A DNA stretch of 64,000 nt, from the IMG/VR virus record IMGVR_UViG_3300025167_000005. The stretch is one strand, 5' to 3'. Made by a program: the position numbers and the translations under genes. The notes beneath the pieces were generated by a model, which was given only the letters and a program-made list of their open reading frames with translations, made no database searches and was not told where the DNA came from. Below are positions 6,492 to 61,687 of the stretch, one piece after another. How positions within the stretch are numbered: position 1 is the first letter of the stretch; each line of letters opens with the position of its first letter. Source of the DNA: an uncultured virus (IMG/VR IMGVR_UViG_3300025167_000005). Taxonomy: Duplodnaviria; Heunggongvirae; Uroviricota; Caudoviricetes.

Positions 6492-6870
6492 GGTGGACCA
6501 TTGTTATGGTCCGTTTGGGTATCTTCCCAGAAGTCACAGAAAGCGTCTTCTTGGAGAAACGACCTTTCCAAACCGTCAACTTGTCAAGGTCCGTATAGAC
6601 TTTGGTGTAAACTGGTTCGTGTCCAAGAAGGCGGCCAAGCTGTGGAAGAAGAACTCCTTCGAGACCTTTCTTGATGGTCTCATTATGGTGACACTACACG
6701 AGTTTTATCATGCTTTCGAGCCTCTCTATACGCGGTATAGGAAGGCGGAGAGGGGAGCGGACCTTTTTGCCTACTACGGTCTTATGACCAGAAAGAGAAA
6801 GGGAGAAGGCAGTCTGGCGAAGGCAGTCTGGCTGTGTTCGTTTAGAACCAGACGCCGTATTTCTTCTTGA
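6469..6870 (+). CDS. Putative HExxH zinc metallopeptidase
   Basis: TLHEFYHA followed by AERGADLFA. Confidence 0.55.
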   Translation: MRVKLQHEVDHCYGPFGYLPRSHRKRLLGETTFPNRQLVKVRIDFGVNWFVSKKAAKLWKKNSFETFLDGLIMVTLHEFYHAFEPLYTRYRKAERGADLFAYYGLMTRKRKGEGSLAKAVWLCSFRTRRRISS

Positions 6871-7210
6871 GGGCCCGAAGGTTCTCTTTGGCGTCCCGGA
6901 AGTCTACGGCAGACTTCTGGACGGAGACCTTTGCCTCGGCGATGTTTGCCTTGGACTCGTCGATGACCTGCCTCAGTTCGACGCGCTTGTGACGCAGGTC
7001 TTCTCCCGCGTCCTTCAGCTTGGCTTTGGAGGCTTGCAGAGACTCTTTCTTGCCGGGCTGGTCTCCAGGGGCGACAAACCGTGGCTGTCGGCCTCCCGCG
7101 GGCTTGGGCGGCGTGGTCACGAACGAATAGGGGGACCGGAAGCCTGGTTCTTCCTCCGTCGCCGTGCGACGAAGGTATCTGCGCACGGGCACTGCTTTGT
7201 TGCCGGTCAT
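6842..7210 (-). CDS. Basic coiled-coil protein with N-terminal Arg tag
   Basis: MTGNKAVPVRRYLRR; ATGA overlap with the upstream ORF. Confidence 0.7.
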   Translation of the reverse strand: MTGNKAVPVRRYLRRTATEEEPGFRSPYSFVTTPPKPAGGRQPRFVAPGDQPGKKESLQASKAKLKDAGEDLRHKRVELRQVIDESKANIAEAKVSVQKSAVDFRDAKENLRALKKKYGVWF

Positions 7211-7377
7211 GAGGTCGTCATGTCCTTGGGCAACCAGCCTACTTTCTTGGCCCACTTCCGAAGACCTCGTTTCAGTTGCGGAGGAGTCTTCCTGGATTCA
7301 AGCGACTTAAGGACTCCTTCCTTGCGTTCGGCTTTGGTGAGGACGTGGCGTCTGCGGACGTAACGACGGACGTACAT
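7207..7377 (-). CDS. Small basic protein (56 aa) with N-terminal Arg tag
   Basis: MYVRRYVRRRHVLTKAERK..., not in the ORF track; TATA CTTTAAATAC about 25 nt upstream. Confidence 0.65.
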   Translation of the reverse strand: MYVRRYVRRRHVLTKAERKEGVLKSLESRKTPPQLKRGLRKWAKKVGWLPKDMTTS

Positions 7378-7400
7378 CTGTCTGAATTTTGCTTAACGCA

Positions 7401-7457
7401 GTATTTAAAGGTTATCTCTGACCTTGCTTCGACCCGAACTGGCAACCTTTATATTTC
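7401..7457. promoter_or_regulatory. Divergent archaeal TATA promoters
   Basis: CTTTAAATAC on the minus strand (7401-7410) and CCTTTATATT on the plus strand (about 7447-7456), each 25-30 nt upstream of a start codon. Confidence 0.65.
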
Positions 7458-7480
7458 TGTTGCTCCACATAGAGATAGAC

Positions 7481-9306: not shown

Positions 9307-9371
9307 TCAGTAGCAGTTCGGCATAGCGCCCCCGTTACCTTTATATAGTGTCCTGGCACGTCTACTTGCGA

Positions 9372-10532
9372 ATGGCTCCTATTCCGAAGCCTGCCCGTAG
9401 CGGTATCCTGGTCATCGCGGCTGTTGTCATCGCTGTAGTCGTGGCCTTTGCCGTGCTTCGACCGGGATTCGAGGATGTGACCGGAGACGGTCTGCCGGAC
9501 GCCGTCGTCACCTTCGACCAGGCATCGGACACGAACGACGACGGTATCGGAGACAACGTAGACCCGAGGAATGGACCTCCCGCGGGGAACGATTACGACT
9601 TCGACAATGACGGCATTCCAGACCCAGATGACCCCGATGATGACAACGATGGAATCCCGGACATCTCCGACCCCGATGATGACAACGATGGAATCCAGGA
9701 CATCTCCGACCCCGATGATGACAATGACGGTGTGCTCGATACCGTGGACTATGGCATTCCTCCCACGACCTTGAAGGGTATTCTGGCTTTGAACGCCCGT
9801 CTCGACTGGGTCAGCGGAGATGACACTGAATTCACACGGGCGCAGCCCCTGTCCGTGTATGACATCACCAGCGGGCGCGAATTGACTGGTTACATCTATA
9901 CTCCTCAGGTCAAGTTTGACCTGAACCGGGTGTTCGTGGTCGTTGTCAGCCATCTAACCATCCTCATCGAAGTGTCCTGGAAAGACCCGAGCGACCCCGT
10001 GGACGGATTGGACGTACACGAGGTCTTGTCTGTCGATATTCCCCTGAACTCTATCGTCATCTACTCTCAAATAACTCCCTCTCCGACCGGAGGGCATTCC
10101 ACGGACTGGAAACCCTTGGGTAGCGTGGTGGTTGTGTCGGCGAACGACATCGAGGATGCCATCCTGAGTCGGCAGACCTTTAGTCTTCGTGCCGGAGACA
10201 CGGTCTGGGTAACCACAAAGATGGCGGCAGAGTTCCAAGTATATGCCCGGCTTGCTGAGTATCCGGACCTGATTGGTGTATCGCTTGGTAGTCGTGTCCT
10301 CCAGGTATCGTGGCCAACGTTCGCTCTCTGTTGGGACTACTATGAGACCGGGGCCTGTCTCTCCGCGGGCGGTGGTGGCGGCGGTGGAGGTGGTGGAGGG
10401 GACTGTTTTGGGAAACCTGGACCCTGTGACCCGATGCCCATGTCTATCCTCCAGTTGGACAACTCTATCCGTACCAAATATGACAACGAGGACTTTCCCT
10501 CAACTCAGGACCTTCTCAACTGGAGAGGGTGA
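9372..10532 (+). CDS. Membrane-anchored surface protein with thrombospondin type 3-like Ca-binding repeats
   Basis: N-terminal TM helix, repeated DDDNDGIPDISDP, poly-Gly linker; TATA CTTTATATAG upstream. Confidence 0.8.
   Translation: MAPIPKPARSGILVIAAVVIAVVVAFAVLRPGFEDVTGDGLPDAVVTFDQASDTNDDGIGDNVDPRNGPPAGNDYDFDNDGIPDPDDPDDDNDGIPDISDPDDDNDGIQDISDPDDDNDGVLDTVDYGIPPTTLKGILALNARLDWVSGDDTEFTRAQPLSVYDITSGRELTGYIYTPQVKFDLNRVFVVVVSHLTILIEVSWKDPSDPVDGLDVHEVLSVDIPLNSIVIYSQITPSPTGGHSTDWKPLGSVVVVSANDIEDAILSRQTFSLRAGDTVWVTTKMAAEFQVYARLAEYPDLIGVSLGSRVLQVSWPTFALCWDYYETGACLSAGGGGGGGGGGGDCFGKPGPCDPMPMSILQLDNSIRTKYDNEDFPSTQDLLNWRG
9595..9745 (+). repeat. 39-bp tandem repeat encoding D-x-D-N-D-G-I/V-x-D units
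   Basis: CCCCGATGATGACAACGATGGAATCC.GGACATCTCCGA repeated, with degenerate flanking copies. Confidence 0.85.
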
Positions 10533-10535: not shown

Positions 10536-10757
10536 ATGGCCTGTCCAATAGGGGACTTTGGATGCTACGCTGTTGAAGGCATCTTCGGGGTCCTGGCCAC
10601 CTACGTCATTCCTATCGTCCTGGTCCTGGTGGCTCTGTTTGTCTTCCCCCGGATTGGAAAGCACGGATGGATTCTTTCGCTCATCGTCATCGCTGGCGTA
10701 GTTGTGTGGTTCGTCGGAATTCCGGGCCTGGTTCTGCCGGTGAGGGAGATGTTCTGA
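10536..10757 (+). CDS. Small two-TM membrane protein
   Basis: Two hydrophobic helices; GGAG-type RBS. Confidence 0.7.
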   Translation: MACPIGDFGCYAVEGIFGVLATYVIPIVLVLVALFVFPRIGKHGWILSLIVIAGVVVWFVGIPGLVLPVREMF

Positions 10758-10897
10758 TGGGAAGAAGTCTTCTCTATGATGAGGCTATTCGGCGTTCGGG
10801 GGCTTCTGGTCTACGACAGGACAGCGGACCACATCGCAGAGACGTGGGTCTTTTTCGTGGGCAGATTCATGTTCGGTCCCACCGGAGGCGAGCATGA
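10757..10897 (+). CDS. Small protein with C-terminal Arg tag
   Basis: MGRSLLY...QIHVRSHRRRA; TGATG coupling. Confidence 0.55.
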   Translation: MGRSLLYDEAIRRSGASGLRQDSGPHRRDVGLFRGQIHVRSHRRRA

Positions 10898-11046
10898 CCT
10901 CCGTGCCTGTTCGTCGTCATATTCGTCGAGTGAACTGCCTACCGAAGAAAGAGGACATGCTTACGCTCAAGAAAGATAAGGAGGTGGAAGATGAAAAGGA
11001 CAATCCTCGTGAAGAGGTATCTGAGACGGCATCCGACGACGCCTAA
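10894..11046 (+). CDS. Small protein (50 aa) with N-terminal Arg tag and acidic tail
   Basis: MTSVPVRRHIRR...EEVSETASDDA; ATGA coupling; not in the ORF track. Confidence 0.5.
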   Translation: MTSVPVRRHIRRVNCLPKKEDMLTLKKDKEVEDEKDNPREEVSETASDDA

Positions 11047-11455
11047 GCAGACCGTTCTGAACGCGGTTGGTGTCTTGAAGAAACTCGATGCCGATGACAA
11101 CCTGAAGCATCTCTGCTACGTCCAGGTCTCTGATATGGACTCTCAGGTCATTCCGTCGAAGGCGGGCTTCCGTCGTGGAGCCTGTACTGTAGCCAATATA
11201 GAGATGGCCGATGTCCACGACGTAGTCGAAGCCGCTACGACTCTTTACCATGAGGCGTTGCACTCCAGAGACATCGCCGTTCGGGGCGTCGAGGGTGTTG
11301 GCAAAGAAAACGAAGTGGCTGCGCATCGGGAGACCGTTCACTTTCTCAGGGATTGGTTGGCCAAAGAGAAAGACAAGGCCACCCGAGCGCGTATCCGGGA
11401 GGAGATTGATGAAGAGTTCATGTCTATTCGCGTGCTGGGCATGGAAGAGGACTGA
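10991..11455 (+). CDS. HExxH metallopeptidase-like protein with N-terminal Arg tag
   Basis: MKRTILVKRYLRR; TLYHEALH..ENEVAAH; AGGAGGTG RBS. Confidence 0.7.
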   Translation: MKRTILVKRYLRRHPTTPKQTVLNAVGVLKKLDADDNLKHLCYVQVSDMDSQVIPSKAGFRRGACTVANIEMADVHDVVEAATTLYHEALHSRDIAVRGVEGVGKENEVAAHRETVHFLRDWLAKEKDKATRARIREEIDEEFMSIRVLGMEED

Positions 11456-11460: not shown

Positions 11461-12360
11461 GTGCTCTGGTCCTCCAAACTCCCCCAGGACGCCGACTTCG
11501 GGTCGTGGAAGGATGACGACTACCCGAAAACGCCCAAGGGATGGCGCAGACAAGACCTCGGCACGGTTGTTGTCCTATGGCCAAAACGCTCTTCGAGTGT
11601 CGAGCAACGTGCAAAGGAGGTCTACGCCGAGGCCGTGGCTCCCGCCTGGAAGGCCTACGAAGAGACCGAGGCTTCTGCCGAGAAGGTCTACGGCGAGGCT
11701 GTGGTTCCTGCCGAGAAGGTCTTCGACGAGGCCGTGGCTTTCGCCTGGAAGGTCCGCGACAAGGCTGTGGCTCTTGCCCAGAAGGCTTACTACGAGGCCG
11801 TGGCTCCCGCCCTGAAGGTCTACCGCGAGACCGTGGCTTCCGCCCGGAAGGCCCGCGACGAGGTCATAATTTCCGCCCGGAAGGCCCAGGCCGAGGCCGA
11901 GGCTCTCGCCCAGAAGGTCTACGTCGAGGCCGAGGCTCCCGCCCGGAAGGTCTACGACGAGGCCACGGCTCCCGCCCGGAAGGTCTTCGACGAGGCTACG
12001 GCTCCCGCCCGGAAAGCCCGTGAAGAGGCCGAGGCTCCTGCCTGGAAGGTCTACGAAGAGGCCATGGCTCTCGCCGGAATCGACTACAACCTCGTTCTCG
12101 CCGAGAACCTGCCTCTTCTTCTCGACCCTCCACCTTCCCGAATTGTCCTCTACAATGCCAATACCGACAAGTGGGTGGAAACCCCAGACCCGCAGGAAGC
12201 TTCCAAGTTTGCGAGCCTGGCGGTGTGGGAAGGTCAGAAGTTCGCGGAGAAGTTGATTGAGGGGCGGAAAGAAGTCCGGAAGGCGTTCGAAGGCGGAGAG
12301 CTTGTACGATTTGGTCGGCGCAGGACGGTCTTCGTTAGGAACTACCGGAGGAGACGATGA
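11461..12360 (+). CDS. 11-residue (hendecad) repeat protein with C-terminal Arg tag; paralog of 59867-60646
   Basis: EAVAPAWKVYD-type repeats; ends VFVRNYRRRR. Confidence 0.85.
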   Translation: MLWSSKLPQDADFGSWKDDDYPKTPKGWRRQDLGTVVVLWPKRSSSVEQRAKEVYAEAVAPAWKAYEETEASAEKVYGEAVVPAEKVFDEAVAFAWKVRDKAVALAQKAYYEAVAPALKVYRETVASARKARDEVIISARKAQAEAEALAQKVYVEAEAPARKVYDEATAPARKVFDEATAPARKAREEAEAPAWKVYEEAMALAGIDYNLVLAENLPLLLDPPPSRIVLYNANTDKWVETPDPQEASKFASLAVWEGQKFAEKLIEGRKEVRKAFEGGELVRFGRRRTVFVRNYRRRR

Positions 12361-14701: not shown

Positions 14702-15286
14702 ATGGTACGAATGATACCTGTCCGTAGATACCTTCGTCGAAAGCGCGGAAAGCAGCGTCAGAGGTTGCCGCCTATCCCGCCTGCGGGAACTCCACTCTTT
14801 GACTGGAATGAGATAGCTCCGGGCCTGCTGGACGAGGTCCTGGAAAGGGCCAAAGGACGAACCGAGAAATCCTGGAGCATTCTGCCAGATGGTAACGTGG
14901 AGACGTGCGAGGGAGGACCGACCTCGTGCATCGTGAGCCAGGCAGCCGTGTACGTCTTCCACACTCATCCCGCTTCTCCATACGACACAGAGTCACGCCC
15001 GCCCAGTGTGAGAGACGTGCTTTCGCTCTATAGGCATCCAATGATGAAGGCCAGCATTGTCGTGGATGGCCATGGGAACGTCTGGGGGATGCGTAAGACC
15101 ACAGAGACTTCCACCCGGTCGCCGTGGAAATTGATGCGAGATTATAAGGGGCTTGAAGAACTTTTTGGAAGCGAGATGTGGAGCGAGAAGTTCGCCCGCG
15201 AGCTGGGCATCGAGGTCGTTCAACTTAGGAGCCAATGGGACCCTCCGGCGGTATCCTTTTGGGACGACGTTGGCCCTAACCTTTAA
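14702..15286 (+). CDS. JAB/MPN-like domain protein with N-terminal Arg tag
   Basis: MVRMIPVRRYLRR; upstream E, FHTHP, PPSVRD (HxH-x(n)-S-x2-D). Confidence 0.7.
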   Translation: MVRMIPVRRYLRRKRGKQRQRLPPIPPAGTPLFDWNEIAPGLLDEVLERAKGRTEKSWSILPDGNVETCEGGPTSCIVSQAAVYVFHTHPASPYDTESRPPSVRDVLSLYRHPMMKASIVVDGHGNVWGMRKTTETSTRSPWKLMRDYKGLEELFGSEMWSEKFARELGIEVVQLRSQWDPPAVSFWDDVGPNL

Positions 15287-34902: not shown

Positions 34903-34906
34903 AGGT

Positions 34907-48907: not shown

Positions 48908-49035
48908 CGGTTTCCTCCTGAAAGGTCGGAGGTTACGTACTCGTCCAGTTGTCTCTGAAGTTCATTGATAGCCCGGACCAGGGCTTCCGTCCTGTTTGGC
49001 TTCCCGTGGACTACCGAGACTGTAGCGACTCCCAT
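48904..49035 (-). CDS. Small hypothetical protein
   Basis: Coupled on both sides. Confidence 0.5.
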   Translation of the reverse strand: MGVATVSVVHGKPNRTEALVRAINELQRQLDEYVTSDLSGGNR

Positions 49036-52362: not shown

Positions 52363-52811
52363 CGATGTCTTCTCCGATAGGAGTTGATGTGAACCCGCAC
52401 ACCGGTCCAGGCCTGACGCCTAACGTCGCGCGACCTCAGAGTCTTTAAGACTGTTCCAGGGAGTCTGGCGTGCTTGTCTGGATGCGTTTCAGGAGCATAA
52501 TAATAGTGCTCTTCGTCCGCTGGGAACCAAACCTGGGGAAAGTCCTTGCCGAACTGGTCAGCAGTGATATCAACGATTCGTCCATCGTCAAGTTCGACCC
52601 AAGTATGCCCCCAATCCCGATACCGCTTTTTTGAAGGCCCTGCCCAGTCTCCGTAGAGGACATCGTTGTCGATACCAGAGGCACTAAGCCGTTGCGAAAG
52701 CAGTTCAGACGCCCAATTACACAGTCCTCTCGTCTTGCCGCCGCACTCTCGTTCGACAATCTTGCGGACCGTCGCGGCGATGGACCTTATCTGTTCATCT
52801 TTCTTGGTCAT
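52359..52811 (-). CDS. Papain-like C-H-D protein; paralog of 23535
   Basis: GLCNWAS, GHTWVE, VDITADQF; ends VHINSYRRRHR. Confidence 0.78.
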   Translation of the reverse strand: MTKKDEQIRSIAATVRKIVERECGGKTRGLCNWASELLSQRLSASGIDNDVLYGDWAGPSKKRYRDWGHTWVELDDGRIVDITADQFGKDFPQVWFPADEEHYYYAPETHPDKHARLPGTVLKTLRSRDVRRQAWTGVRVHINSYRRRHR

Positions 52812-53044
52812 CGGGTCCGCCTCCTGTGAGAACGGACCTGGACGTGTTTCGGACGACGCAAGAACTCGCGCATGCGGGTGGGATATTGTCTGCCAGAAGT
52901 CATTGCCATGGCCAACTGGAGTGTCCTCTCGGGGTAGGTCACCGCGTCACTGGGCGGACCATGGTTCATCGCAATTTCCTCCGGTGGCCTCGCACGCGGA
53001 CTCCGAGCTTGCAGATATTTAATATCAGCGGCATCAGGCACCAC
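52808..53044 (-). CDS. Small protein with C-terminal Arg tag
   Basis: Ends VQVRSHRRRTR. Confidence 0.6.
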   Translation of the reverse strand: MVPDAADIKYLQARSPRARPPEEIAMNHGPPSDAVTYPERTLQLAMAMTSGRQYPTRMREFLRRPKHVQVRSHRRRTR

Positions 53045-53381
53045 TTCCCGGCGGGCTCGGTCCCCCGGGCAGCTCCTCCCAGGGGTCTTCCTCGTCGTCC
53101 TCGTCGTCCGACTCGGCCCGCTTCCGCTCGATGTAGGTCGCCAGGCCTTCCCAGGTCGCTCCGAATGCGGCCTTCGGGAAGTGGGGGCTTTGGGCGAGCA
53201 GGGCCAGAGCCAGGTCGAGGAGCACGGCCCGGACGGCCTTCTGGAACGGACTGTCTTCGGGCTTGCGCTGGACGCCGCGAATGGCGTCGGCGAGCTGCTT
53301 CTTGAGGGCGGTCTTCTGCTCGGGCGTCAGCACCTCGTACATCTCGTGCTCGTGTACTTCCGAGATGCGCTCTTCGGTCAA
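53034..53381 (-). CDS. Untagged helical protein with acidic tail
   Basis: TTGA coupling; SDDEDDEED. Confidence 0.7.
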   Translation of the reverse strand: MTEERISEVHEHEMYEVLTPEQKTALKKQLADAIRGVQRKPEDSPFQKAVRAVLLDLALALLAQSPHFPKAAFGATWEGLATYIERKRAESDDEDDEEDPWEELPGGPSPPGSGA

Positions 53382-54007
53382 CTGCGTTCCTCCTGCCCTT
53401 CGTCAGGAGGCAGTCTGCTCCGGGCCGGTACAAGACGACGACTCTTCCCGGCGAGTTCATCCAGGAACGCTACTCCCTCATCGTCGTTATGGATTCCAGA
53501 CACGAACATCCCGACCAGGGAGCCATCATCGTGAAGAACGTGGACAAACATGTCGATGGCCATCATCCTCTTGTTGAAGTCCCTGAAATCCCGGGCGCGT
53601 TGAAGTTTCGTCCACCGCTCGGTAATATCGTTTCCATAGGAGTAAAAAAGGCCTCCGAGGATGTGCTGGGATGCGTCTTCCAACTCGTTGTTGTCTTCTT
53701 CCTCTCCAGTGGCCACGGAGTCGGCGCAATGAACGAACGTCGCGTAAGCCTCGGCGCGGGCGATAAGCTTTGACTCGACTTCCTCCAGCAGGTCCGTATC
53801 CAGCATTCCGCTGACAAAGCTTTTGTAGAGACGGAGCAGTTCGCCTTGTTCGACTTTGGGCATGTCCACTGGTGAAGGGAACTTGTTGCTGCGCAGGCAT
53901 TTCCAGAACCGCTTCACCCGGGGATTCTTCGTATGTATGAGGAGTCGCATGTCCAACTTGACGCCACGCCTTCGCATGTGGCGGTGAACCCTTACTGGTT
54001 TCATCAT
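53378..54007 (-). CDS. Tagged hypothetical protein; paralog of 47763
   Basis: MMKPVRVHRHMRRR. Confidence 0.8.
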   Translation of the reverse strand: MMKPVRVHRHMRRRGVKLDMRLLIHTKNPRVKRFWKCLRSNKFPSPVDMPKVEQGELLRLYKSFVSGMLDTDLLEEVESKLIARAEAYATFVHCADSVATGEEEDNNELEDASQHILGGLFYSYGNDITERWTKLQRARDFRDFNKRMMAIDMFVHVLHDDGSLVGMFVSGIHNDDEGVAFLDELAGKSRRLVPARSRLPPDEGQEERS

Positions 54008-54825
54008 TCCCATCCCCCGGGCCATTCGGCGCGCAGATTCTCCGCCCCGTATCCGCTCAGCGCCGTGATGCGCCAAGAACCCAGGTGCGGCTCGAAATAA
54101 AGACGGTCGTGGATGGTCTCTCCCGGGAAGGCCCGCACGCGGACCTCCACGCCATACAGGATGTCTTCAGGCTTCGCGGCAGGGTCCGGAACGTACCAGA
54201 CATCGGCGTCACTACCGACCTTGTCCCGGTTGTCCAGGCAGCGCCCGTTCGAGCCTTTCAGGCAGGGTGGATAGGCGATGATACGGACGCCTTCCACGAA
54301 TCCAAAGTAGACTCCGCGCCCGCCTCCCCCGGTCACTGCGACCGGTTGGCCTGTCAGTTTGCGCACCTCACCTGCCAAGAGTTCGGCGCCGTCCTTCTCG
54401 AAGTCGGCAAAGTGCCCCCTGGGATGTTCCGGGGGGTTCGGAATGAGAACATCGGCGCCCATCCCGGCGGCAGCGCGGACCCTGGGCATGGTGGCCAGGA
54501 CCTCGGGAGTCGGCGCCACGAATCTCTCCGCGAACGAATAGCTTGGCTCGAAGCTCTTTCCATAAAGTCCGCGGACGGCCTCGACCGCCGCCCGCTGCTC
54601 CGGGGTCAGGTCCTTTCCCAGGAACTGCTCCTCGGCAACGATGCGCTCCTTGGCGTACTCGTTCGGAACGAGGATGCTCCTGCCCACACGGACGGTTCCG
54701 TCGGGAAGCCGTTCCCCCCGGGTCTTCGTCGCAACGTACTTCTCGTCGCCCTTCTTCCTGGAGACCCATCCACCGCCGAGGAAGACCACGCGGCGACGCA
54801 AGTGCCTCCGGACGCGGACATTCAC
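54004..54825 (-). CDS. Hypothetical protein with N-terminal Arg tag
   Basis: GTG start, VNVRVRRHLRRR. Confidence 0.75.
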   Translation of the reverse strand: MNVRVRRHLRRRVVFLGGGWVSRKKGDEKYVATKTRGERLPDGTVRVGRSILVPNEYAKERIVAEEQFLGKDLTPEQRAAVEAVRGLYGKSFEPSYSFAERFVAPTPEVLATMPRVRAAAGMGADVLIPNPPEHPRGHFADFEKDGAELLAGEVRKLTGQPVAVTGGGGRGVYFGFVEGVRIIAYPPCLKGSNGRCLDNRDKVGSDADVWYVPDPAAKPEDILYGVEVRVRAFPGETIHDRLYFEPHLGSWRITALSGYGAENLRAEWPGGWE

Positions 54826-54838
54826 CGGCCCACTTCCA

Positions 54839-55399
54839 TCATCGTCGCCTCCGGTAGGAGCCGACGTGGACCCGACGACGCATTGGACCAATGGTTTCGT
54901 ACCCGCGGGGGGATTTCTTGATTCTTCCAGGGAACTTTCTCTCCAAAGAGTCCCAGAGGGCCTCGGCTTCACGCGACCTTGGACGGACGGAGAGAAGGCT
55001 CTTGCCATACGAATGAGCGTCGTTGACCGCGAACCGGTAGAGGAATGTCCCCAGTCCCTTTCTCTCCCAACCATTGGCGACTTGGGCACTGCCAATGACC
55101 CAGGTAGACTCGTCCTCAACATAAGTGGAAAGCATTCCCACGACCATGTATTCTTTTTCGGATTCCGCAAGCAGGAGATACAGCCAGTGTCTGTCCGTCG
55201 CGTGCATGTGTTCTGGCGTTTTGGCTGCAAACACCTTATAACGAAGTCCGGAGGGAGCTACGACGGAGATGAACTGGTCAGAGAGCACCGGTTCAGCTTC
55301 TTCTTTAGACAGCATTTTATCCCACCAGACGGCTTGTGAGGACTCAATTGCACAGAGGCACGGTAAACAGGGAGCATGTCTCCGGACGTGGACGGTCAT
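54839..55399 (-). CDS. GNAT-like protein, copy 2, with partial N-tag and full C-tag
   Basis: MTVHVRRH...; WERKGLGTFLY; ends VHVGSYRRRR. Confidence 0.75.
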   Translation of the reverse strand: MTVHVRRHAPCLPCLCAIESSQAVWWDKMLSKEEAEPVLSDQFISVVAPSGLRYKVFAAKTPEHMHATDRHWLYLLLAESEKEYMVVGMLSTYVEDESTWVIGSAQVANGWERKGLGTFLYRFAVNDAHSYGKSLLSVRPRSREAEALWDSLERKFPGRIKKSPRGYETIGPMRRRVHVGSYRRRR

Positions 55400-55986
55400 C
55401 GGGATTGCCTCCGATATCTCTTGACATGGACCTTTCGAGGCCTTCGGGACAGGACCGGCAGGGCGGCCCAGGTGCGGTGGGTGATTTCCTCGGGGCGAAT
55501 GTCCATGGGAGGCCGCTCTTCCGTATATCTTCCTGTGGTCTGGATTTTCCCAATGAAACGGCGATAGCGTTCCCGGTCCCATCCGAACCGGGCAGCCTGG
55601 ATAGCTTCCCAGAAGATGGCCCTTTGCTCGGAAGGTCGGTCTACGTGAACACTGTACAGGAACTGTTCCAGAGATATCATTGCTTGCCTTATTGGTTTCA
55701 TAGTCAGGATATCAGCAATATGGTACAACTCGTGGGCCATGACGACATAGAGTTCTTCTGCATCCAACCCGAGGCGACGCACCAAGTCCTTATTGACCGC
55801 GAAAAACGGACCGCCGGGAGTCAGATAAGTCACGCTCACGGAGTTCTCTTTCGTTTCCTCGATGACAGAGACAGGGAACCCCTTCAACAGATGCCGGACG
55901 GGCAGGACATCGAGGTTCACGAACTCTTCCAGGTTTACGGGCTTCTGAGACAGTTTTCCCCAGTTCACCCAAAGTTCCTCGGTCAT
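55396..55986 (-). CDS. HExxH metallopeptidase-like family member, C-tag
   Basis: MAHELYH..EQRAIFWEAIQAARFGW; ends VHVKRYRRQSR. Confidence 0.8.
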   Translation of the reverse strand: MTEELWVNWGKLSQKPVNLEEFVNLDVLPVRHLLKGFPVSVIEETKENSVSVTYLTPGGPFFAVNKDLVRRLGLDAEELYVVMAHELYHIADILTMKPIRQAMISLEQFLYSVHVDRPSEQRAIFWEAIQAARFGWDRERYRRFIGKIQTTGRYTEERPPMDIRPEEITHRTWAALPVLSRRPRKVHVKRYRRQSR

Positions 55987-56555
55987 CGGGTCCTCCGATG
56001 AGTGCGGACGCGGATTGCCCGTCGGGGACGACGGGTGAGCGGGGGCAGAAAAGATGCAAACTCCCTCTTGTCCTCTTCCGAGACAGATATCTTCCTTTCT
56101 CCTTTATACACCCCTTGGACAAAGGTCATCACTCTCCCGCGGGTCCAGCCAAATCTTGCAGCCTGGAGTCCGGCCCAATAATTGGCCTCCTGCTCTCCTG
56201 GCTGGTCTCCGTGGGCAGCCGCATGGGGAAACAGATGCTCTACAGCCTTTCCTCTGAAAGGATGGTATATATGTGTCAGCTCATGGGCCAGGAGCACATA
56301 GAATGCTTCTGGGTCATCCAATGCCGCGTCGAGGACATCAATCCTAATCAATATTTTGGCCGTCTTACCCTGGCCAACTACCCAGGCGGCCTGGGAATGC
56401 GGCGAGGACGCAGCCTGGACAGGAATGTCTTCAACGCGGACTCCGGTTCTCTTTTTAACCTCGTGCCGGTTGACAAGAAGGTTGACATCCACCAGGTCCT
56501 TCAGGAGAACAACCGTTCCGACCCGGAAGCCGATTTCTTTGATGCGCGCGGTCAT
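55983..56555 (-). CDS. HExxH metallopeptidase-like family member, C-tag
   Basis: LAHELTH..EQEANYWAGLQAARFGW; ends IRVRTHRRTR. Confidence 0.8.
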   Translation of the reverse strand: MTARIKEIGFRVGTVVLLKDLVDVNLLVNRHEVKKRTGVRVEDIPVQAASSPHSQAAWVVGQGKTAKILIRIDVLDAALDDPEAFYVLLAHELTHIYHPFRGKAVEHLFPHAAAHGDQPGEQEANYWAGLQAARFGWTRGRVMTFVQGVYKGERKISVSEEDKREFASFLPPLTRRPRRAIRVRTHRRTR

Positions 56556-57103
56556 GCCCGCCTCCTGTGATGGGTCCTGACCTGCACGACACGCCTCCGA
56601 GGCGGCAGCGACGGGAAGGCAGGCCAGGACTCCTGCTCTCGTATCCTTCGAGTACGGAACCCCAGCTTCTTGATAAATGCTCGGTGGGTCTCTCTGTTCC
56701 ATCCCATGCGCGCTGCCTGGAGGCCTTCCCAGTATATGGCATCTTGTTCACATCGTTTATCATGATGGTATACATAACCCTTGCCCTCGTGAGATTGGCA
56801 TAGAGCAGGCAATTGCCAGAAGTGTGCGGTTTCATGAGCTATCAGAACATAGACTTCTTCATCTGATAGCTTGTGGATGTTGGTAAATATTATGACCTTC
56901 TCGTTTATGCGGTCACCGGCGAGGGCATTGGCAACACTGCCCGGGACCAGGTTAAAACCTACCTTGGGCATGAGCCTCCGTTTCCTCAATTCGTGAACGG
57001 TCACCAGCTGGTCAACATCAATCAGGTCGGACAGGGGCTGAGGCTTTATGTTGTAGATGTCAGAAGCCAGCTTGCGGTTCACGGGAAAATCCTCGGAGGT
57101 CAT
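56552..57103 (-). CDS. HExxH metallopeptidase-like family member, C-tag
   Basis: IAHETAH..EQDAIYWEGLQAARMGW; ends VQVRTHHRRRA. Confidence 0.8.
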   Translation of the reverse strand: MTSEDFPVNRKLASDIYNIKPQPLSDLIDVDQLVTVHELRKRRLMPKVGFNLVPGSVANALAGDRINEKVIIFTNIHKLSDEEVYVLIAHETAHFWQLPALCQSHEGKGYVYHHDKRCEQDAIYWEGLQAARMGWNRETHRAFIKKLGFRTRRIREQESWPAFPSLPPRRRVVQVRTHHRRRA

Positions 57104-57651
57104 GCTCTCCGCCTCCGGTGAGAGCCAACATGAACCCGACGACGCATCGGACCTCTGGCCTCGTAACCGCGGAAGGTCTTCAGTACCTTTCCGGGGAACT
57201 TTCTATTCAAAGAGTTCCAGAGGGCTTCGGCTTCCCGCGACCTTGGATGAATGGAATGAAGGACCTTGCCATACGAATGGGCGTCATTGACCGCGAATCG
57301 GTAAAGGAATGTCCCCAATCCCCTTCTGTTCCAACCATCAGCGACTTGGGAACCACCGATGACCCAAGTGGATTCGTCTTCGATGTAGACAGAAAGCATT
57401 CCTACGACGACCATATATTTCCCCTCGTACTCTGCAAGCAGGAGATACAGCCAGTGCCTGTCCGTCGCATACCCGTGCTCTGGCGTCTTGGCCACGAATA
57501 CCTTGTGATAAAGCCCGGAAGGAGCGACAACAGAAACGAACTGGTCAGAGAGCACTGGTTCAGCCTCTTTTGTAGGCACCCACCTACCCATGACACTCTC
57601 TTCTTCCCAGAACGTCTTGCGATGTGGCATGCCGGGAATCGTGTCGGTCAT
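57100..57651 (-). CDS. GNAT-like protein, copy 3, C-tag
   Basis: WNRRGLGTFLY; ends VHVGSHRRRRA. Confidence 0.75.
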   Translation of the reverse strand: MTDTIPGMPHRKTFWEEESVMGRWVPTKEAEPVLSDQFVSVVAPSGLYHKVFVAKTPEHGYATDRHWLYLLLAEYEGKYMVVVGMLSVYIEDESTWVIGGSQVADGWNRRGLGTFLYRFAVNDAHSYGKVLHSIHPRSREAEALWNSLNRKFPGKVLKTFRGYEARGPMRRRVHVGSHRRRRA

Positions 57652-57737
57652 CGGCGCCTCCGATGGGACCCAACGCGAACCGGTCGTCGGGACAAGACGG
57701 GCAAGGCGGCCCGGTCCACCCGGGGCAGATATTTCAC
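57648..57737 (-). pseudogene. Tag-only remnant (29 aa) of an HExxH-family gene
   Basis: MKYLPRVDRAALPVLSRRPVRVGSHRRRR; AALPVLSRRP matches the C-terminus of 55396-55986. Confidence 0.6.
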
Positions 57738-58300
57738 TGGCCATCCCCCGGCTCGACGTTACGGTAGTCCAGGATTTTGACCGTGAACAGCCTCTCGGCC
57801 GCCGACCGTTCCTCGACCGTCAGGTCCGCGGCGTCCAGCAGGCCTTCCCAGTTCCGTTCCAGGTCCTGGCGGGTTCCGATGTACGTGTTCATGCCCACGT
57901 CGTCACTGTGCTGCGCCAGGACGCCGCCGTCCGAGGTGACGACCATGTCATCGATGGCCGGGTCGGTCCACTTCTTGTCGAGCACGTACCCCAGGATGGC
58001 CGCCATCTTCGGACTCATGCCCGGGAACCGGCCCGGGTACAGCTTCTTCTGGAGGTTCTCCAGGTCCTCCGGGCCCATGAGAGCGCCGACGACCGTCGCC
58101 TTGATGGCCCTGTCCTCGGCCTTGGCCTTCGCCACAAAATCTGCAAGACGCCGTTCTTCGTGCCGCTTTTCTTCATATTCCTTCTTGTGCCTGGCGAGGT
58201 CGTCCGAAAGCGGGTAGTCTGCCTTCGTCTTCTTTACGAAGTCATCGAGCGTGACGTGTTTGCGGCGGCGCAAATGAAGACGAACTTTCACTGGCTTCAA
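57734..58300 (-). CDS. Hypothetical protein with N-terminal Arg tag
   Basis: TTG start, KPVKVRLHLRRRK. Confidence 0.8.
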   Translation of the reverse strand: MKPVKVRLHLRRRKHVTLDDFVKKTKADYPLSDDLARHKKEYEEKRHEERRLADFVAKAKAEDRAIKATVVGALMGPEDLENLQKKLYPGRFPGMSPKMAAILGYVLDKKWTDPAIDDMVVTSDGGVLAQHSDDVGMNTYIGTRQDLERNWEGLLDAADLTVEERSAAERLFTVKILDYRNVEPGDGQ

Positions 58301-58328
58301 CGATGAGGCCTCCCGTCTCGGACCAGTT

Positions 58329-58901
58329 TCATGGTGACCGCCTCCGATGCGCTTGCACCCGGACCGGTCGCCTGGACATCCAGGACCGGGCAGCCCAGCC
58401 TCTTCGGACGACCTCTTCTGGAATGGTAGAAGAACGTAGTATGCCGCGTCCTATAGAGTACACCCGTCCCACGTACCGACGATATCTTTCCTGAGTCCAC
58501 CCGAATTTGGAAGCCTGCATCGACTCCCAAAAGATGGCCCGCTGCTCGGAAGGGCGGTCAGAGTGTATGGGGATTTCCATTCGCTCGTCGATGACCCCCC
58601 ACACAGAAGTCTTTCCTGTTCTCACTTCAACTACGTGAGAAATTTCATGGGCCAGCATCACGTAGACCTCTTCCGGGTCGAGTTTGGAAAGATATTCGAC
58701 ATTGACCTGGAGCGTGGTATCTCCAAGAGAAGTCAGTAACGTTGCTATCGACGCGGTTTCCAAGGGAGCGTTGACTATGGTAAGTAGCGAACCATGTTTG
58801 GCCAGAAGACTCCGGTTGACGAGGACCTTAACATCGAAAACCTCGGAGATATTTGCTTGTCTCCAGCGCAAGGCCGTCCAATTCGTCTTCAGCTCGGTCA
58901 T
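58329..58901 (-). CDS. HExxH metallopeptidase-like family member, C-tag
   Basis: LAHEISH..EQRAIFWESMQASKFGW; ends VRVQAHRRRSP. Confidence 0.8.
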   Translation of the reverse strand: MTELKTNWTALRWRQANISEVFDVKVLVNRSLLAKHGSLLTIVNAPLETASIATLLTSLGDTTLQVNVEYLSKLDPEEVYVMLAHEISHVVEVRTGKTSVWGVIDERMEIPIHSDRPSEQRAIFWESMQASKFGWTQERYRRYVGRVYSIGRGILRSSTIPEEVVRRGWAARSWMSRRPVRVQAHRRRSP

Positions 58902-59365
58902 CGGCGTCTCCGATATCCGTGGACCCGCACACCGGCCCTGCGCTGACGGAACCGCTGGAGTTCCTCCGAGAACCCCGAGGGCCGAAGCAGGTAGACCGGG
59001 TCATCGATACTCGCCAGCTTGCCCAGGGCAACGGGGCCGATGCTGCGAAGACGCTTGCCGTGCTCGTCGGTCAAGTCAATGTAGGACTCATAGTCTACTC
59101 CGAGATGCAAGACATCACTCTGAAGAAAATCCACGATACGAGACCAATGCCGTCGGATGTCGTCTGCCTGACCCTCGACGTAACCACTCGACACGCGGAC
59201 CCAGTGATTGGCGAGCAGGGTGACCGAGGGCGTCATGTCGTGTATCCAGGGAGTCCCATAGCCACGGATTCGCACTGCCTGCTCAGCCTGGTCGAGATGG
59301 GTCCCCTCGCGCCCGGCGACCAGGACCTCGTCCTCGCCCTCAGGAGAAATCCAGACGCGGACCAT
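58898..59365 (-). CDS. Hypothetical protein, C-tag; related to 23041
   Basis: WISPEGE..H..WVRV; ends VRVHGYRRRR. Confidence 0.75.
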   Translation of the reverse strand: MVRVWISPEGEDEVLVAGREGTHLDQAEQAVRIRGYGTPWIHDMTPSVTLLANHWVRVSSGYVEGQADDIRRHWSRIVDFLQSDVLHLGVDYESYIDLTDEHGKRLRSIGPVALGKLASIDDPVYLLRPSGFSEELQRFRQRRAGVRVHGYRRRR

Positions 59366-59736
59366 CAGGCGACCTCCATATCTATCCAAAACACGTCTAC
59401 GGGAATGTCGTTCCACCGCCATCCATCAACAGGACGGTACGCCATCCGGTTGTTGTGCCCGATTATTTCAACGTACTTTGAACCCATGAAATCCAGTCCC
59501 ATCGTCTCCAACCGGTCGGTCATGGCCTGCCTGTCTCCGCGGGCTACAATGTCAATGTCGTGCTCGGAGAACTCACGAGCGGTCAGACTGCCATAAAGGG
59601 CATACTTCACGCCGGGCACCGGACCAATCTCGCGGAGCAACCGGGCTGCATCGTCCCGGGTGATATGTGTGCTCCGCCCGGGAGGAATCTCGAACCCCTT
59701 CCTGCGTCGGAGGTGGCGATGGACCTGGACGGTCAT
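59365..59736 (-). CDS. Minimal nucleotidyltransferase (Pol-beta fold) with N-terminal Arg tag
   Basis: MTVQVHRHLRRR; LYGSL..EHDIDI..VDVF. Confidence 0.8.
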   Translation of the reverse strand: MTVQVHRHLRRRKGFEIPPGRSTHITRDDAARLLREIGPVPGVKYALYGSLTAREFSEHDIDIVARGDRQAMTDRLETMGLDFMGSKYVEIIGHNNRMAYRPVDGWRWNDIPVDVFWIDMEVA

Positions 59737-59870
59737 CGGTGTCTCCGCAGGAAGATGGAGAAAACGACCATGATGACCCGGACACCCATGGGCTCAGGAC
59801 CCCGGGCCCTTGCAGCGGCGATTTCAACGGGGTTTGGGATTTCCAATGGAAGATAGGTAGGAGCTATCAT
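59733..59870 (-). CDS. Small coupling ORF ending LRRHR
   Basis: ATGA overlaps at both ends. Confidence 0.45.
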   Translation of the reverse strand: MIAPTYLPLEIPNPVEIAAARARGPEPMGVRVIMVVFSIFLRRHR

Positions 59871-60646
59871 GCCCGCCTCCGATAGTTCCTGACAAAAACA
59901 CTCCGACGCCGACCGAACTGTACCGGCTCTCCACCCTCGAACGCCTTCCGGACCTCTTTCTCCCCCTTGAACAGCTTCTCCATGAACTTCTGGCCCTCCC
60001 ATACGGCCAGGCTCGCAAGCCTGGAAGCTTCCTGCGGGTCCGGGGTTTCCACCCACTTATCGGTATCGGCATTATAGAGAACGATTCGGGAAGGCGGAGG
60101 ATTGAGAAGGAGAGGCAGGTTCTCGGCAAGAGCAAGGTCGAAGTCGATTCTGGCAAAAGCCTTGGCTTCGTCGTAGGCCTTCCCAGCGGGAGCCATGGCC
60201 TCATCGCGGGCCTTCCGGTCGGGAGCCGTGGCCTCGTTATAGGCTTTCTGGGCAGGAGCCATGGCCTCATCGCGGGCCTCGTTATAGGCTTTCTGGGCAG
60301 GAGCCGTGGCCTTGTCGAGGGCCCTCCAGGCGGAAGCCGTGGCCTCAACGAGGGCCTTCCAGGCGGAAGCCGTGGCCTCAACGTAAGCCTTCCGGGCGGG
60401 AGCCGTGGCCTCAACGAAGGCCTTCCAGGCAGAATTCGTGGCCTCAACGTAAGCCTTCCGGACGGGAGTTGTAGCCTCGTAGTAGACCTTCTGTGTTCGG
60501 TTTTCAATCTCCCGAGAGCGCTCCGGCCATAGGATAACGACCGTGCCGAGGCCCTGTCTGCGCCATCCCTTGGGCGTCTTCGGGTAGTTGTCGTCTTTCC
60601 ACGAACCGAAGTCGGCGTCCTGAGGGAGCTTGGAGGACCAGAGCAT
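59867..60646 (-). CDS. Hendecad-repeat protein, C-tag; paralog of 11461
   Basis: Near-identical N- and C-domains; EATA(P/S)A(W/R)KA(Y/F)V repeats. Confidence 0.85.
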   Translation of the reverse strand: MLWSSKLPQDADFGSWKDDNYPKTPKGWRRQGLGTVVILWPERSREIENRTQKVYYEATTPVRKAYVEATNSAWKAFVEATAPARKAYVEATASAWKALVEATASAWRALDKATAPAQKAYNEARDEAMAPAQKAYNEATAPDRKARDEAMAPAGKAYDEAKAFARIDFDLALAENLPLLLNPPPSRIVLYNADTDKWVETPDPQEASRLASLAVWEGQKFMEKLFKGEKEVRKAFEGGEPVQFGRRRSVFVRNYRRRA

Positions 60647-61119
60647 CACCGATGCCTCCGATAGATTCCAACACGAACCGGTCTTCGCCGATTGTTCGCC
60701 GTACGAGCAGCACGAAGACGTGGATAGTAGGTCGTCGCAGCACTCAACGCAAACTGCTTCAAGTCTTCGGGATGAGATTCATATCGGTCTGGCCTGCTCG
60801 GATAAACACGAATTTGTCCTACCGGAATAGTCTTGTCGAACTGGCATTCCGTGGGGTCGATGACGATTCCTTCCTTCGTCTCAAGCCAGCAGTGAAATGA
60901 AAACCACCTGTCGTCGTCATCATAGGTCCCGCAAACAACTCGGGTCCAGATTCCCTTGCTCCTCAGGAAGTCCTTAAGAACGAAGTGACTGGCCGTGTAA
61001 CAGGCAGCCTTAAGCCGCTTCGTTGTGTCGATACCCCCCTCATACGGCCACTTTCTCTCCAACAGTTCCAGGAACTCTTTCGGAGACGGTAACACCGCCT
61101 CGACATCGGAAACGTTCAT
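60646..61119 (-). CDS. Papain-like C-H-D protein, C-tag
   Basis: AACYTAS, FHCWLE, IDPTECQF; ends VRVGIYRRHR. Confidence 0.75.
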   Translation of the reverse strand: MNVSDVEAVLPSPKEFLELLERKWPYEGGIDTTKRLKAACYTASHFVLKDFLRSKGIWTRVVCGTYDDDDRWFSFHCWLETKEGIVIDPTECQFDKTIPVGQIRVYPSRPDRYESHPEDLKQFALSAATTYYPRLRAARTANNRRRPVRVGIYRRHR

Positions 61120-61616
61120 CGGGACCTCCGGTAAGCGCTAACGTGTATTGGTCTCCTCCGAGTCTCCGCGGGACGGCGGAAGCCAAACCGCTCTGAATGA
61201 GCCTTGAACACGGTGCCCACGGCGAAATCCCCCATCAGGCCGTTGCTGTCGTTGAAGACATGCCGTGCAGCATGACGATGGTGGTCCATAGTGTCGTGCG
61301 CCAGGTCCTGTGTGAGTTGCTTCAAAAAGAACTCGTGGCCCCCATACTTCTCGTGGTAATCCGCAAGTCCTCTCTTCAATTCTGCAAGATACTCCCTGGC
61401 CGACTTCAGGCGTTCCAGGAAGAATGCCATGTCCGGGTCCGGGCCGAATCCCCCGATGATGTGGACTTTGCCATCAGCTCCGACCTCAAATCGTTTCGAC
61501 GGAGCGTCCTTGGTAAGAGTACTGGCCAGCAGAGCCAGGTCGTTGAGGACCAGGTTCAAGTTCTGCCAGATGCTGAGCACGTTGCTCGCATCGCGCAACT
61601 GCTGGCCTCCAGTCAT
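61116..61616 (-). CDS. Hypothetical protein, C-tag
   Basis: Ends IHVSAYRRSR. Confidence 0.78.
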   Translation of the reverse strand: MTGGQQLRDASNVLSIWQNLNLVLNDLALLASTLTKDAPSKRFEVGADGKVHIIGGFGPDPDMAFFLERLKSAREYLAELKRGLADYHEKYGGHEFFLKQLTQDLAHDTMDHHRHAARHVFNDSNGLMGDFAVGTVFKAHSERFGFRRPAETRRRPIHVSAYRRSR

Positions 61617-61687
61617 CGGCGCCTCCGCCTCGGCAGGAACCAGAACCGACGAAGGCGGGCTCCCGCTCGGATGTTGATGTCCTTCAT
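61613..61687 (-). CDS. Putative 24-aa Arg-rich leader peptide of the array
   Basis: MKDINIRAGARLRRFWFLPRRRRR; ATGA overlap with the first cargo gene. Confidence 0.45.
   Translation of the reverse strand: MKDINIRAGARLRRFWFLPRRRRR

Follow-up and report, generated by a model that had tools for sequence, protein, structure and literature searches.

An arginine-rich terminal peptide tag shared by some forty largely unrelated proteins of an uncultured, apparently archaeal element

The DNA analyzed here is a stretch of 64 kb from the IMG/VR record IMGVR_UViG_3300025167_000005, catalogued as an uncultured virus of the Caudoviricetes; "the window" below means this whole stretch of 64,000 nucleotides. 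Its G+C content is 57%, and its genes are tightly packed, with overlaps that are often ATGA. We used 104 gene models from our own codon-usage caller, with some starts and missed genes corrected by hand. Searches of the window proteins against Pfam and PHROGs identified a family B DNA polymerase (PolB), an ATP-dependent ligase, an Mre11/SbcD-like exonuclease, a dNMP kinase, two NT5C nucleotidases, an HD hydrolase, a serine recombinase, a divergent TFB/TFIIB-like factor, and five glycosyltransferases with a sugar epimerase, together with several membrane or surface proteins. TFB and the Shine-Dalgarno coupling of the genes suggest an archaeal element. Proteins of this element also occur on contigs of 141,101 and 144,611 nt, so that the element measures at least about 141-145 kb and well under half of it is visible in the window. 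The subject of this analysis is a short, arginine-rich peptide (hereafter, the tag) found at one terminus of some forty of the encoded proteins.

Reading along the window, the first carrier is a 123-aa protein with an N-terminal tag at 6842-7213 on the minus strand, its tag core (AVPVRRYLRR) lying at 7166-7192. On the plus strand follow a small C-tagged open reading frame (ORF) of 76 aa at 10667-10897, which ends in IHVRSHRRRA and overlaps a membrane-protein gene; an N-tagged small ORF of 50 aa at 10894-11046 (MTSVPVRRHIRR); an N-tagged protein of 154 aa at 10991-11455 (MKRTILVKRYLRRHP); a C-tagged protein of 299 aa with 11-aa tandem repeats at 11461-12360 (TVFVRNYRRRR); and an N-tagged protein of 191 aa at 14711-15286 (MIPVRRYLRRKR). 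The two small ORFs, like the small carrier at 52808-53044, are weaker gene calls. Back on the minus strand, an NT5C-like nucleotidase of 217 aa (20903-21556) carries at its C-terminus a tag in the N-type spelling, TVEVRRHLRRVRLK. Next to it lie a C-tagged protein of 223 aa at 21556-22227 (NVHVHAHRRRQR), with tagged homologs in the related contigs L022, L023, and L043, and a C-tagged GNAT-like relative of 166 aa at 22541-23041 (AVKVSAHIRRRQE). Two variant carriers adjoin them: a 165-aa protein at 23041-23538, in which the core RVRRHLRH is followed by a tail of about 25 aa with a C-x-C-H motif (PSKSCLCHRSKTVNRIR), and a 151-aa transglutaminase-core protein at 23535-23990 with a borderline C-terminal tag (TFVRSYRRKRA).

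The plus strand from 31591 onward encodes N-tagged proteins of 80 aa (31591-31833; MDVEVIVKRHLRRRK), 177 aa (31830-32363; MKVIVRRHLRRKP), and 305 aa (32360-33277, with a GTG start; KVIVRRHLRRKP), an N-tagged DnaJ and DUF7417 protein of 158 aa (33274-33750; KVIVRRHFRRHP), a C-tagged protein of 323 aa (33755-34726; SVPVRSHLRRRQA), and a C-tagged zincin with an HExxH motif (34871-35464, 197 aa; AVRVHAYRRHR). In the 323-aa protein, the Shine-Dalgarno site comes two codons later and position 7 of the motif is L.

On the minus strand, tagged genes make up a 14-kb array. N-tagged proteins are encoded at 47341-47766 (141 aa, with a weak ParB-like match; MIRVRRHLRRRF), 47763-48341 (192 aa; TVHVRRHLRRRK), 48338-48907 (189 aa; MTVHVRRHLRRKW), and 49205-49969 (254 aa; MTVHVRKHLRRRT). 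C-tagged proteins follow at 49966-50337 (123 aa; FVAVRSYRRRR), 50334-50897 (GNAT-like, 187 aa; RVHVGSHRRRR), 50894-51604 (236 aa, with a doubled tag; QVNVRSYRRRRQCRVKAHRRRR), 51604-52362 (252 aa; PVHVSSYRRKR), 52359-52811 (150 aa; RVHINSYRRRHR), and 52808-53044 (a small protein whose true start is probably an ATG just past a mini-ORF; HVQVRSHRRRTR). That mini-ORF, at 52966-53034, has 22 codons, ends in GVRVRGHRRKLR, and overlaps with its ATG the stop of the acidic protein gene at 53034-53381. Beyond lie N-tagged proteins of 210 aa (53378-54010; MMKPVRVHRHMRRRG) and 274 aa (54004-54828, with a GTG start; VNVRVRRHLRRRV), and then a C-tagged GNAT-like protein (54839-55315, 158 aa; RVHVGSYRRRR), three C-tagged zincins (55396-55986, 196 aa, KVHVKRYRRQSR; 55983-56702, 239 aa, AIRVRTHRRTR; 56552-57103, 183 aa, VVQVRTHHRRRA), and another C-tagged GNAT-like protein (57100-57651, 183 aa; RVHVGSHRRRRA). 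A short frame of 36 codons from stop to stop at 57642-57750 bears a tag at its end (RPVRVGSHRRRR) and is apparently a tag-only remnant. Further along come an N-tagged protein at 57734-58300 (188 aa; KPVKVRLHLRRRK), a C-tagged zincin at 58329-58901 (190 aa; PVRVQAHRRRSP), a C-tagged protein at 58898-59389 (163 aa; GVRVHGYRRRR), which has a tagged homolog in contig L005, an N-tagged protein at 59365-59736 (123 aa; MTVQVHRHLRRRK), a C-tagged paralog of the repeat protein 11461-12360 at 59867-60649 (260 aa; SVFVRNYRRRA), a C-tagged transglutaminase/papain-like core protein at 60646-61119 (157 aa; PVRVGIYRRHR), and a C-tagged protein at 61116-61616 (166 aa; PIHVSAYRRSR). The mini-ORFs at 52966-53034 and about 57642-57750 hold little beyond a tag and the ribosome-binding site of the next gene. 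They may be remnants after body loss or frame change; the one at 52966-53034 would be either what is left of a lost body or a frameshifted tail.

In its strict form, [VI]-x-[VI]-x-x-[HY]-x-R-R, the motif matched the six-frame translation of the window 35 times. Shuffled controls gave a mean of 0.76 matches (100 mononucleotide shuffles) or 0.67 (100 codon-block shuffles), and no shuffle of either kind gave more than 3. Seventeen of the 35 matches end within 5 residues of a stop, 15 have a Met no more than 6 residues upstream, and most of the remaining ones follow GTG or TTG starts. Every match but one sits at or next to the end of an open frame, the exception being an antisense match at 15753. 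When the last motif residue was relaxed, the number of six-frame matches rose to 46. At the level of gene models, 39 of 104 carry the tag within a few residues of one terminus, 16 at the N-terminus and 23 at the C-terminus. No protein is tagged at both ends, whereas independent placement of the two kinds predicts about 3.5 such proteins (P = 0.013). With the two variant carriers (23041-23538 and 23535-23990) and the two tag-only mini-ORFs, the total comes to about 43, close to the roughly 44 ORFs counted by hand in the initial annotation, which had also placed the motif at extreme termini and nearly always at one end.

The proteins that carry the tag are of modest size (median 187 aa) and have little else in common. 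Once stripped of their tags, the 39 bodies fell into 29 BLAST families at E ≤ 1e-3, namely one family of five (the zincins), one of four (the GNAT-like proteins), three pairs, and 24 singletons, which largely bears out the earlier statement that the bodies are unrelated. A membrane-like segment (19 hydrophobic residues) was found in none of the 39 tagged proteins vs. 18 of the 65 untagged ones (P = 9e-5). PolB, the ligase, TFB, the resolvase, the five glycosyltransferases, and all proteins with a membrane segment are untagged, as the initial annotation had listed them; for Lon, also on that list, the C end is indeed untagged and the N end falls outside the window. All enzymes of replication, transcription, and sugar metabolism that could be recognized are likewise untagged. 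The tag is real, selected at the protein level, terminal, and carried by largely unrelated soluble accessory proteins.

At C-termini the tag reads approximately [S/R]-R-R-(P)-V-[R/H]-V-[R]-[S]-[H/Y]-R-R-R-[R/A]-stop, and at N-termini M-x-V-x-V-[R/K]-R-H-L-R-R-[R/K], often with K/H-P next. C-terminal tags have 7 to 9 Arg within the last 14 or so residues, and the aromatic position is H in 28 and Y in 17 of the 45 C-terminal tags of the codon alignment described next. The tag adds a charge of +6 to +9 to bodies that are near neutral (median net charge -1, median isoelectric point 6.5). To see at which level it is conserved, we made a codon alignment of non-duplicate tags, 18 N-terminal and 45 C-terminal, taken from the window and from eight related contigs. 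In the core codons (the two V, the aromatic residue, and the flanking R), the information content is 1-2 bits at the first and second positions but only 0.04-0.3 bits at the third, and Arg in the N-terminal tags is encoded by all six codons. Since third positions are nearly uninformative and all six Arg codons are used, the tag is selected as a peptide, and the earlier remark that codons vary while residues hold was accurate.

There is one departure from this codon freedom. In C-terminal tags, the two R after the aromatic residue are nearly always CGG AGG, and the third positions of codons +6 and +7 carry 1.24 and 1.28 bits. Within CGG AGG lies GGAGG, which is the Shine-Dalgarno sequence for the gene downstream, and a CGATGA overlap of stop and start comes after it. 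GGAGG occurs in the last 36 nt of 18 of the 23 C-tagged genes, always in the xGG-AGG frame; this frame is used by 18 of 19 GGAGG sites in C-tagged ends vs. 5 of the 14 sites in the remaining genes (P = 4e-4). If the next start is more distant, GGAGG shifts along and motif position 7 reverts to L/I as in the N-terminal tags, for example in 20903-21556, 22541-23041, and 33755-34726 and also in relatives. The C-terminal copies are therefore dual-coded with the ribosome-binding site of the next gene, a feature that the initial annotation missed, as it did the recognition-tag reading raised by the LonB-type gene described below. Because position 7 returns to L/I wherever the ribosome-binding site lies elsewhere, V-x-V-x-x-[H/Y]-[L/I]-R-R-R is the native spelling of the tag; at C-termini a further R-R-R-(P) precedes it, and its length is 10 to 14 residues.

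Two carriers were modeled with AlphaFold2 (AF2). The model of the zincin 55396-55986 (52-row alignment) has a predicted local distance difference test score (pLDDT) of 84.9, and its tail, residues 181-196, is coil with a pLDDT of 68-79. That of the GNAT-like protein 50334-50897 (9-row alignment) has a pLDDT of 66.8, falling below 50 in the tail (residues 176-186). In both models the tag looks like a flexible tail, and there is no sign that it belongs to either fold. An extended form, in which the core is followed by a conserved tail of about 25 aa that includes P-x-K-S-C-x-C-H-R-S-K-T-V-N-R, is found in 23041-23538 (-), in L022:1111-1683, and in the zincins P0075 and P0081. A profile of this C-x-C-H tail had no PDB or Pfam match; it may be a small metal-binding module.

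Comparison with homologs indicates that the tag moves between ends and between bodies. The body of 47341-47766 is N-tagged in the window and in its L022 homolog; the L043 homolog (41% identity) is C-tagged and begins right after where an N-terminal tag would sit. Likewise, the bodies 47763-48341 and 53378-54010 are N-tagged, and their homolog L022:3452-4246 is C-tagged. A profile search with the zincin across 1.84 billion proteins yielded 63 representative clusters (at the 50% identity level), 43 of them C-tagged and 2 N-tagged (P0098 and P0104); the most distant clusters (E above 1e-6) are untagged. All eight full-length metagenomic homologs of the repeat protein 11461-12360 retain the C-terminal tag, down to 41% identity. 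Within the window, one NT5C paralog is tagged (20903-21556) and the other is not (5296-5952). The initial annotation had raised the question of whether homologs elsewhere lack the tag, and they do. The 14 other DUF7417 proteins examined, of 23 matches, are all without it. When two archaeal phyla were searched with the zincin profile, untagged homologs turned up in 13 of 401 genomes of one and 31 of 401 of the other. Of 14 archaeal genomic zincin loci examined (the unpublished genome G199 being among the genomes), none is tagged. As judged from these sequences, the tag is portable, swapping ends and bodies, and homologs outside this group of elements are without it.

The group itself is diverse. 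A scan of metagenome contigs with the DNA pattern of the C-terminal tag returned 41 loci. Nine distinct contigs with G+C contents of 0.49 to 0.67 bear two to eight tags each, and three further contigs nearly duplicate parts of the window. Related elements arrange their cargo genes in different orders. The tag thus belongs to a diverse group of uncultured elements. In viral contigs, tag DNA patterns gave chance or internal matches only. In genome contigs they gave 21 loci and then more than 121, which were single chance matches, mostly in high-G+C bacteria, with one possible exception. A word-index search with the tag region alone returned 2 matches and was uninformative. The possible exception, L072:1784-1990 (+), lies in a metagenome-assembled genome (MAG) of a Micrarchaeota archaeon. 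It is an ORF of 68 codons in which a near-consensus tag comes first and a very acidic tail follows, and it adjoins a serine recombinase gene. No relative of the zincin was found in that MAG.

A minority of the tagged bodies could be assigned to a known family or fold. The five tagged zincin peptidases share in alignment an invariant H-E-x-x-H and a downstream E, and the top Foldseek matches of the model of 55396-55986 are BepA/M48 and minigluzincins (E about 3e-3). The zincin's nearest Atlas clusters are labelled Uroviricota and Thermoplasmatota, with scores of 0.92-0.93 and low feature sharing. The GNAT-like carriers comprise three close paralogs and one distant. Two transglutaminase/papain-like cores are present (one, 23535-23990, with the borderline tag), as are the NT5C and DnaJ-DUF7417 bodies, and the ParB-like match of 47341-47766 is weak. 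Each carrier that matches a family has a single body domain, except for DnaJ plus DUF7417. PDB sequence searches with four large tagged bodies gave nothing usable, and PADLOC, run on 37 proteins, returned one marginal SIR2 match only. The initial annotation had named several domains typical of phage polyvalent or virion-delivered proteins as cargo. Zincin, GNAT-like, and papain/transglutaminase-like bodies are there and the ParB-like one is weak; ADP-ribosyltransferase and nucleotidyltransferase bodies were not found among the carriers by any of our searches, which included Pfam, PHROGs, PDB sequences, and PADLOC.

Several other features of the window deserve description. At its start (35-1393, +) lies the C-terminal half of a LonB-type AAA+ protease (E 2e-31 to 3k1j), the remainder of the gene lying beyond the window start. 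It is unusual for an archaeal, virus-like element to encode a full Lon. No Cdc48-like gene was found in the window with Pfam, and there are no tRNAs. The divergent TFB/TFIIB-like protein (35500-36684, -) is very basic (+21), and the Atlas clusters closest to it are a mixture of archaeal and giant-virus ones. Strongly acidic, membrane-anchored proteins are encoded at 9348-10532, 16303-17976, 24267-24959, and 25223-25936 (+). One of the four has D-rich, calcium-binding-like repeats (net charge -44) and one a PKD domain, and two are paralogs with a homolog beside tagged genes in contigs L022 and L032. All four are candidates for surface or particle proteins. A tandem repeat of 33 nt (11 residues, approximately K-A/V-Y-D-E-A-V-A-P-A-R) takes up much of several genes, at 11618-12079, 26528-26740, 40511-40698, 44081-44632, and 60158-60491, and is present in many metagenomic proteins. 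Three repeat genes (26346-26813, 29391-29630, and 40329-40772) all begin with W-H-V-H-H, and in two of the three the C-terminus is C-x-N-C-P-W-N-G-K-T-I-F-P. Near-identical DNA was found in nine DNA sequencing runs from soil, sediment, and groundwater (a single run, with a small share); no RNA sequencing run was listed. Among contigs from the soil runs, the repeat number at 60202-60593 varies, and some contigs diverge from the window at 53085-53121. The latter positions are inside the gene for an acidic, helical protein of 115 residues with a very acidic, D/E-rich tail (53034-53381, -), the sole untagged gene in the 14-kb array. We considered this protein as a dedicated reader of the tag and dropped the idea: the tag-only mini-ORF lies next to it, and its own tag was possibly lost by a frame change.

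Short peptides that act as addresses at the ends of unrelated proteins are known from several systems, and a narrow literature search found no description of a tag like this one. One such system is the cargo-loading peptides of Family 1 encapsulins, whose shells have the HK97 fold. These peptides are short, sit at the N- or C-terminus of unrelated cargo (LTVGSLRR in M. xanthus), and bind an acidic patch inside the shell through hydrophobic anchors and a basic residue with a V-x-x-x-x-R spacing (PMC11190991, PMC7925596). By eye, LTVGSLRR aligns with C-terminal tags such as V-H-V-G-S-H-R-R, with the spacing h-x-h-x-x-h-R-R. However, position 6 is H/Y in the window tag and L in the encapsulin peptide, the window tag is far more basic, and encapsulin operons hold one to few cargo proteins whereas the window has about 40 carriers with no shell gene beside them. 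In phage T4, the capsid targeting sequence (CTS) is described as a portable peptide of about 10 residues, reportedly conserved in IPII and IPIII, that directs proteins, including foreign ones, to the core of the prohead, from where they are injected along with the DNA (PMC9958956). The CTS is confined to the N-terminus, while in the window 23 of 39 tags are C-terminal and the peptide is arginine-rich and found on about 40 proteins. The prohead protease of T4 digests the core; in the window no prohead protease was found and no adjoining cleavage motif was seen, and the one protease of a known processing class is the LonB-type enzyme.

Transfer and export signals offer more partial parallels. 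The VirB/D4 signal of Agrobacterium is a C-terminal positive cluster that marks unrelated proteins for transfer and works on reporters (PMC10025392). It resembles the window's C-terminal tags in its Arg cluster, but the 16 N-terminal tags do not fit. The signal belongs to a bacterial system, is limited to the C-terminus, and follows a loose Arg consensus that is without the V-x-V-x-x-H core, and Pfam and PHROGs scans of the window found no VirD4/TraG- or VirB4-like families. A twin-arginine translocation (Tat) signal has R-R followed by a hydrophobic h-region at the N-terminus, whereas none of the 39 carriers has a hydrophobic segment and most tags are C-terminal.

The repertoire of bodies, as distinct from the tag, overlaps that of the polyvalent proteins of phages and conjugative elements (Iyer et al. 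2017), with its five HExxH zincins, GNAT-like proteins, transglutaminase core, and weak ParB-like match, though not with ADP-ribosyltransferase or nucleotidyltransferase domains. According to PMC5512222, the zincin metallopeptidase is the commonest domain of polyvalent proteins, which are thought to be delivered with the DNA and are scarce in archaea; a term search of the paper turned up no shared terminal motif. With the zincin as their commonest domain, the comparison to polyvalent proteins made in the initial annotation is reasonable, if only partly verified. Polyvalent proteins combine 2 to 15 domains in one chain, whereas the window encodes separate small proteins, each with its own tag.

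We read the tag as a shared address or docking label that binds one reader, most likely destined for a particle or transfer complex, and we put the probability of this reading at roughly 0.35. It is suggested by the presence of one flexible, terminal tag per protein, by a V/V/aromatic/Arg pattern that stays fixed across diverged elements, and by the restriction of the tag to soluble accessory proteins. The bodies also recall sets of delivered effectors, and the residue pattern recalls encapsulin cargo-loading peptides. An acidic site, the same one for all carriers and on one reader, would take up the two small hydrophobic anchors together with the aromatic residue and the arginines, and many separately encoded enzymes would thereby be gathered in one place. 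That place would most probably be an assembling particle or transfer complex, so that the enzymes would travel with the DNA. The tagged array would then do in pieces what polyvalent proteins do in a fused chain. Since the window contains no capsid gene, transfer gene, or tag reader, we infer both the protein reader and the particle destination, and packaging with them.

A number of observations weigh against the docking and packaging proposal. Pfam and PHROGs found no capsid, encapsulin, portal, terminase, scaffold, prohead protease, or conjugation/transfer genes among the 100-105 window proteins, and no reader of the tag was identified among the window genes. The residues after N-terminal tags and before C-terminal ones share no motif beyond K/H-P and R-R-R-P and, unlike T4, show no adjoining cleavage motif. 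The resemblance to encapsulin peptides is a by-eye pattern over 8 residues, with G-S in only 4 window tags. The viral nature of the element is itself not established by its sequence. Among known phages, the closest polymerases to its PolB are those of haloarchaeal tailed viruses, at 25% identity, and no relatives turned up in the viral, phage, and plasmid sets: PolB found none in viral or genome contigs, and the zincin none in viral contigs, genome contigs, known phages, or plasmids. Finally, a charge of +6 to +9 also suits plain nucleic-acid binding, and the element's own Lon is another possible reader.

The strongest of the alternatives dispenses with a protein reader altogether. The tag could be a nucleic-acid-binding tail whose Arg cluster and stacking H/Y tether enzymes to DNA or RNA, be it the element's genome, the host chromosome, or RNA. 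The high charge of the tag on near-neutral bodies fits such a tail, and the interchange of H and Y at the aromatic position (28 to 17 in the C-terminal tags), its predicted flexibility, and the extended C-x-C-H form, which could be a small metal-binding, nucleic-acid-binding module, are all in keeping with it. However, a two-valine/aromatic spacing held across at least 45 clusters (50% identity) is more typical of docking in a shaped site than of a generic polycation, and strictly one tag per protein is contrary to simple charge dosing. Moreover, the window has no Rfam RNA, and the extended form matched nothing in PDB or Pfam. We regard this explanation as possible but less likely than docking.

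A more specific version of the docking reading, by analogy, is that the tag is an encapsulin-type cargo code in a genuine large archaeal virus, whereby a single address of 10 residues (hydrophobic-x-hydrophobic-x-x-aromatic-R-R) would have some forty small, separately encoded enzymes loaded into the capsid for delivery with the DNA. Zincin and papain-like peptidases, acetyltransferase-like proteins, and a ParB-like protein would be among this cargo. The likenesses and differences set out above leave this a tentative idea, to which we would give fairly low odds.

Because the element encodes a LonB-type AAA+ protease, a recognition tag for proteolysis or unfolding is a serious rival. Here, the element's own protease (the gene at the window start) or a host unfoldase would read the terminal peptide, leading to timed removal or unfolding of the accessory proteins. 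We know of no degron spelled like the window tag. In general design there is a likeness: signals for AAA+ proteases are described as short, portable, at either terminus, and sometimes basic, for example RRKKAI of MuA for ClpX and the C-terminus of SulA for Lon (PMC8138137). On the other side, none of the Lon degrons listed in this source is arginine-rich, Lon and tag are seen together in a single element, and there is no evident reason to mark about 40% of the genes for destruction. We think a degron unlikely. The tag might also act as a short linear motif, recruiting the many viral effectors to a single machine of the host. It is terminal, flexible, portable, and present once per protein, as such a motif could be, and bodies resembling host-modifying enzymes are among the carriers; we hold docking to a host hub to be quite improbable.

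Weakest of all is the view that the tag is a DNA-level by-product, a translational-coupling junction (Shine-Dalgarno plus ATGA) or a cassette recombination joint read as protein. GGAGG in a single frame of the C-tagged ends, its tracking of the distance to the next ATG, and the two tag-only mini-ORFs that persist at junctions can be cited for this very remote prospect, but coupling accounts only for two R codons of the C-terminal copies, not for the V-x-V-x-x-[HY] core and flanking Arg with their free third positions, nor for the N-terminal tags, which lie downstream of the start and in which the third positions of the two corresponding R codons hold only 0.09 bits (n = 18), nor for the reversion of position 7 to L/I in C-terminal tags with a later ribosome-binding site; and contigs from four soil or sediment runs on 47000-62000, although thin in coverage and fragmented, have joints only in the 33-nt repeat (60202-60593) and none at tag junctions. 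For the tag core, a pure junction artefact is excluded.

Compared with known portable address peptides at protein termini, the tag is unusual on several counts: about 40% of the genes seen carry it, it is found at either terminus, the setting is archaeal, and the coding is dual, with the constraints of a peptide and a ribosome-binding site sharing six bases. It is also widespread, with 45 of 63 zincin clusters (50% identity) and at least nine further metagenome contigs bearing it. If one peptide does address about 40% of the window's genes to a common site, the accessory or effector proteome of uncultured archaeal elements would become listable, the reader could be fished out with a synthetic peptide, and a portable tag would be at hand for archaeal cell biology or protein packaging. 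Were the less probable idea of encapsulin-type capsid loading to prove true, the array would amount to a "polyvalent protein in pieces" and would link, in a living system, the loading of encapsulin cargo with the capsids of viruses.

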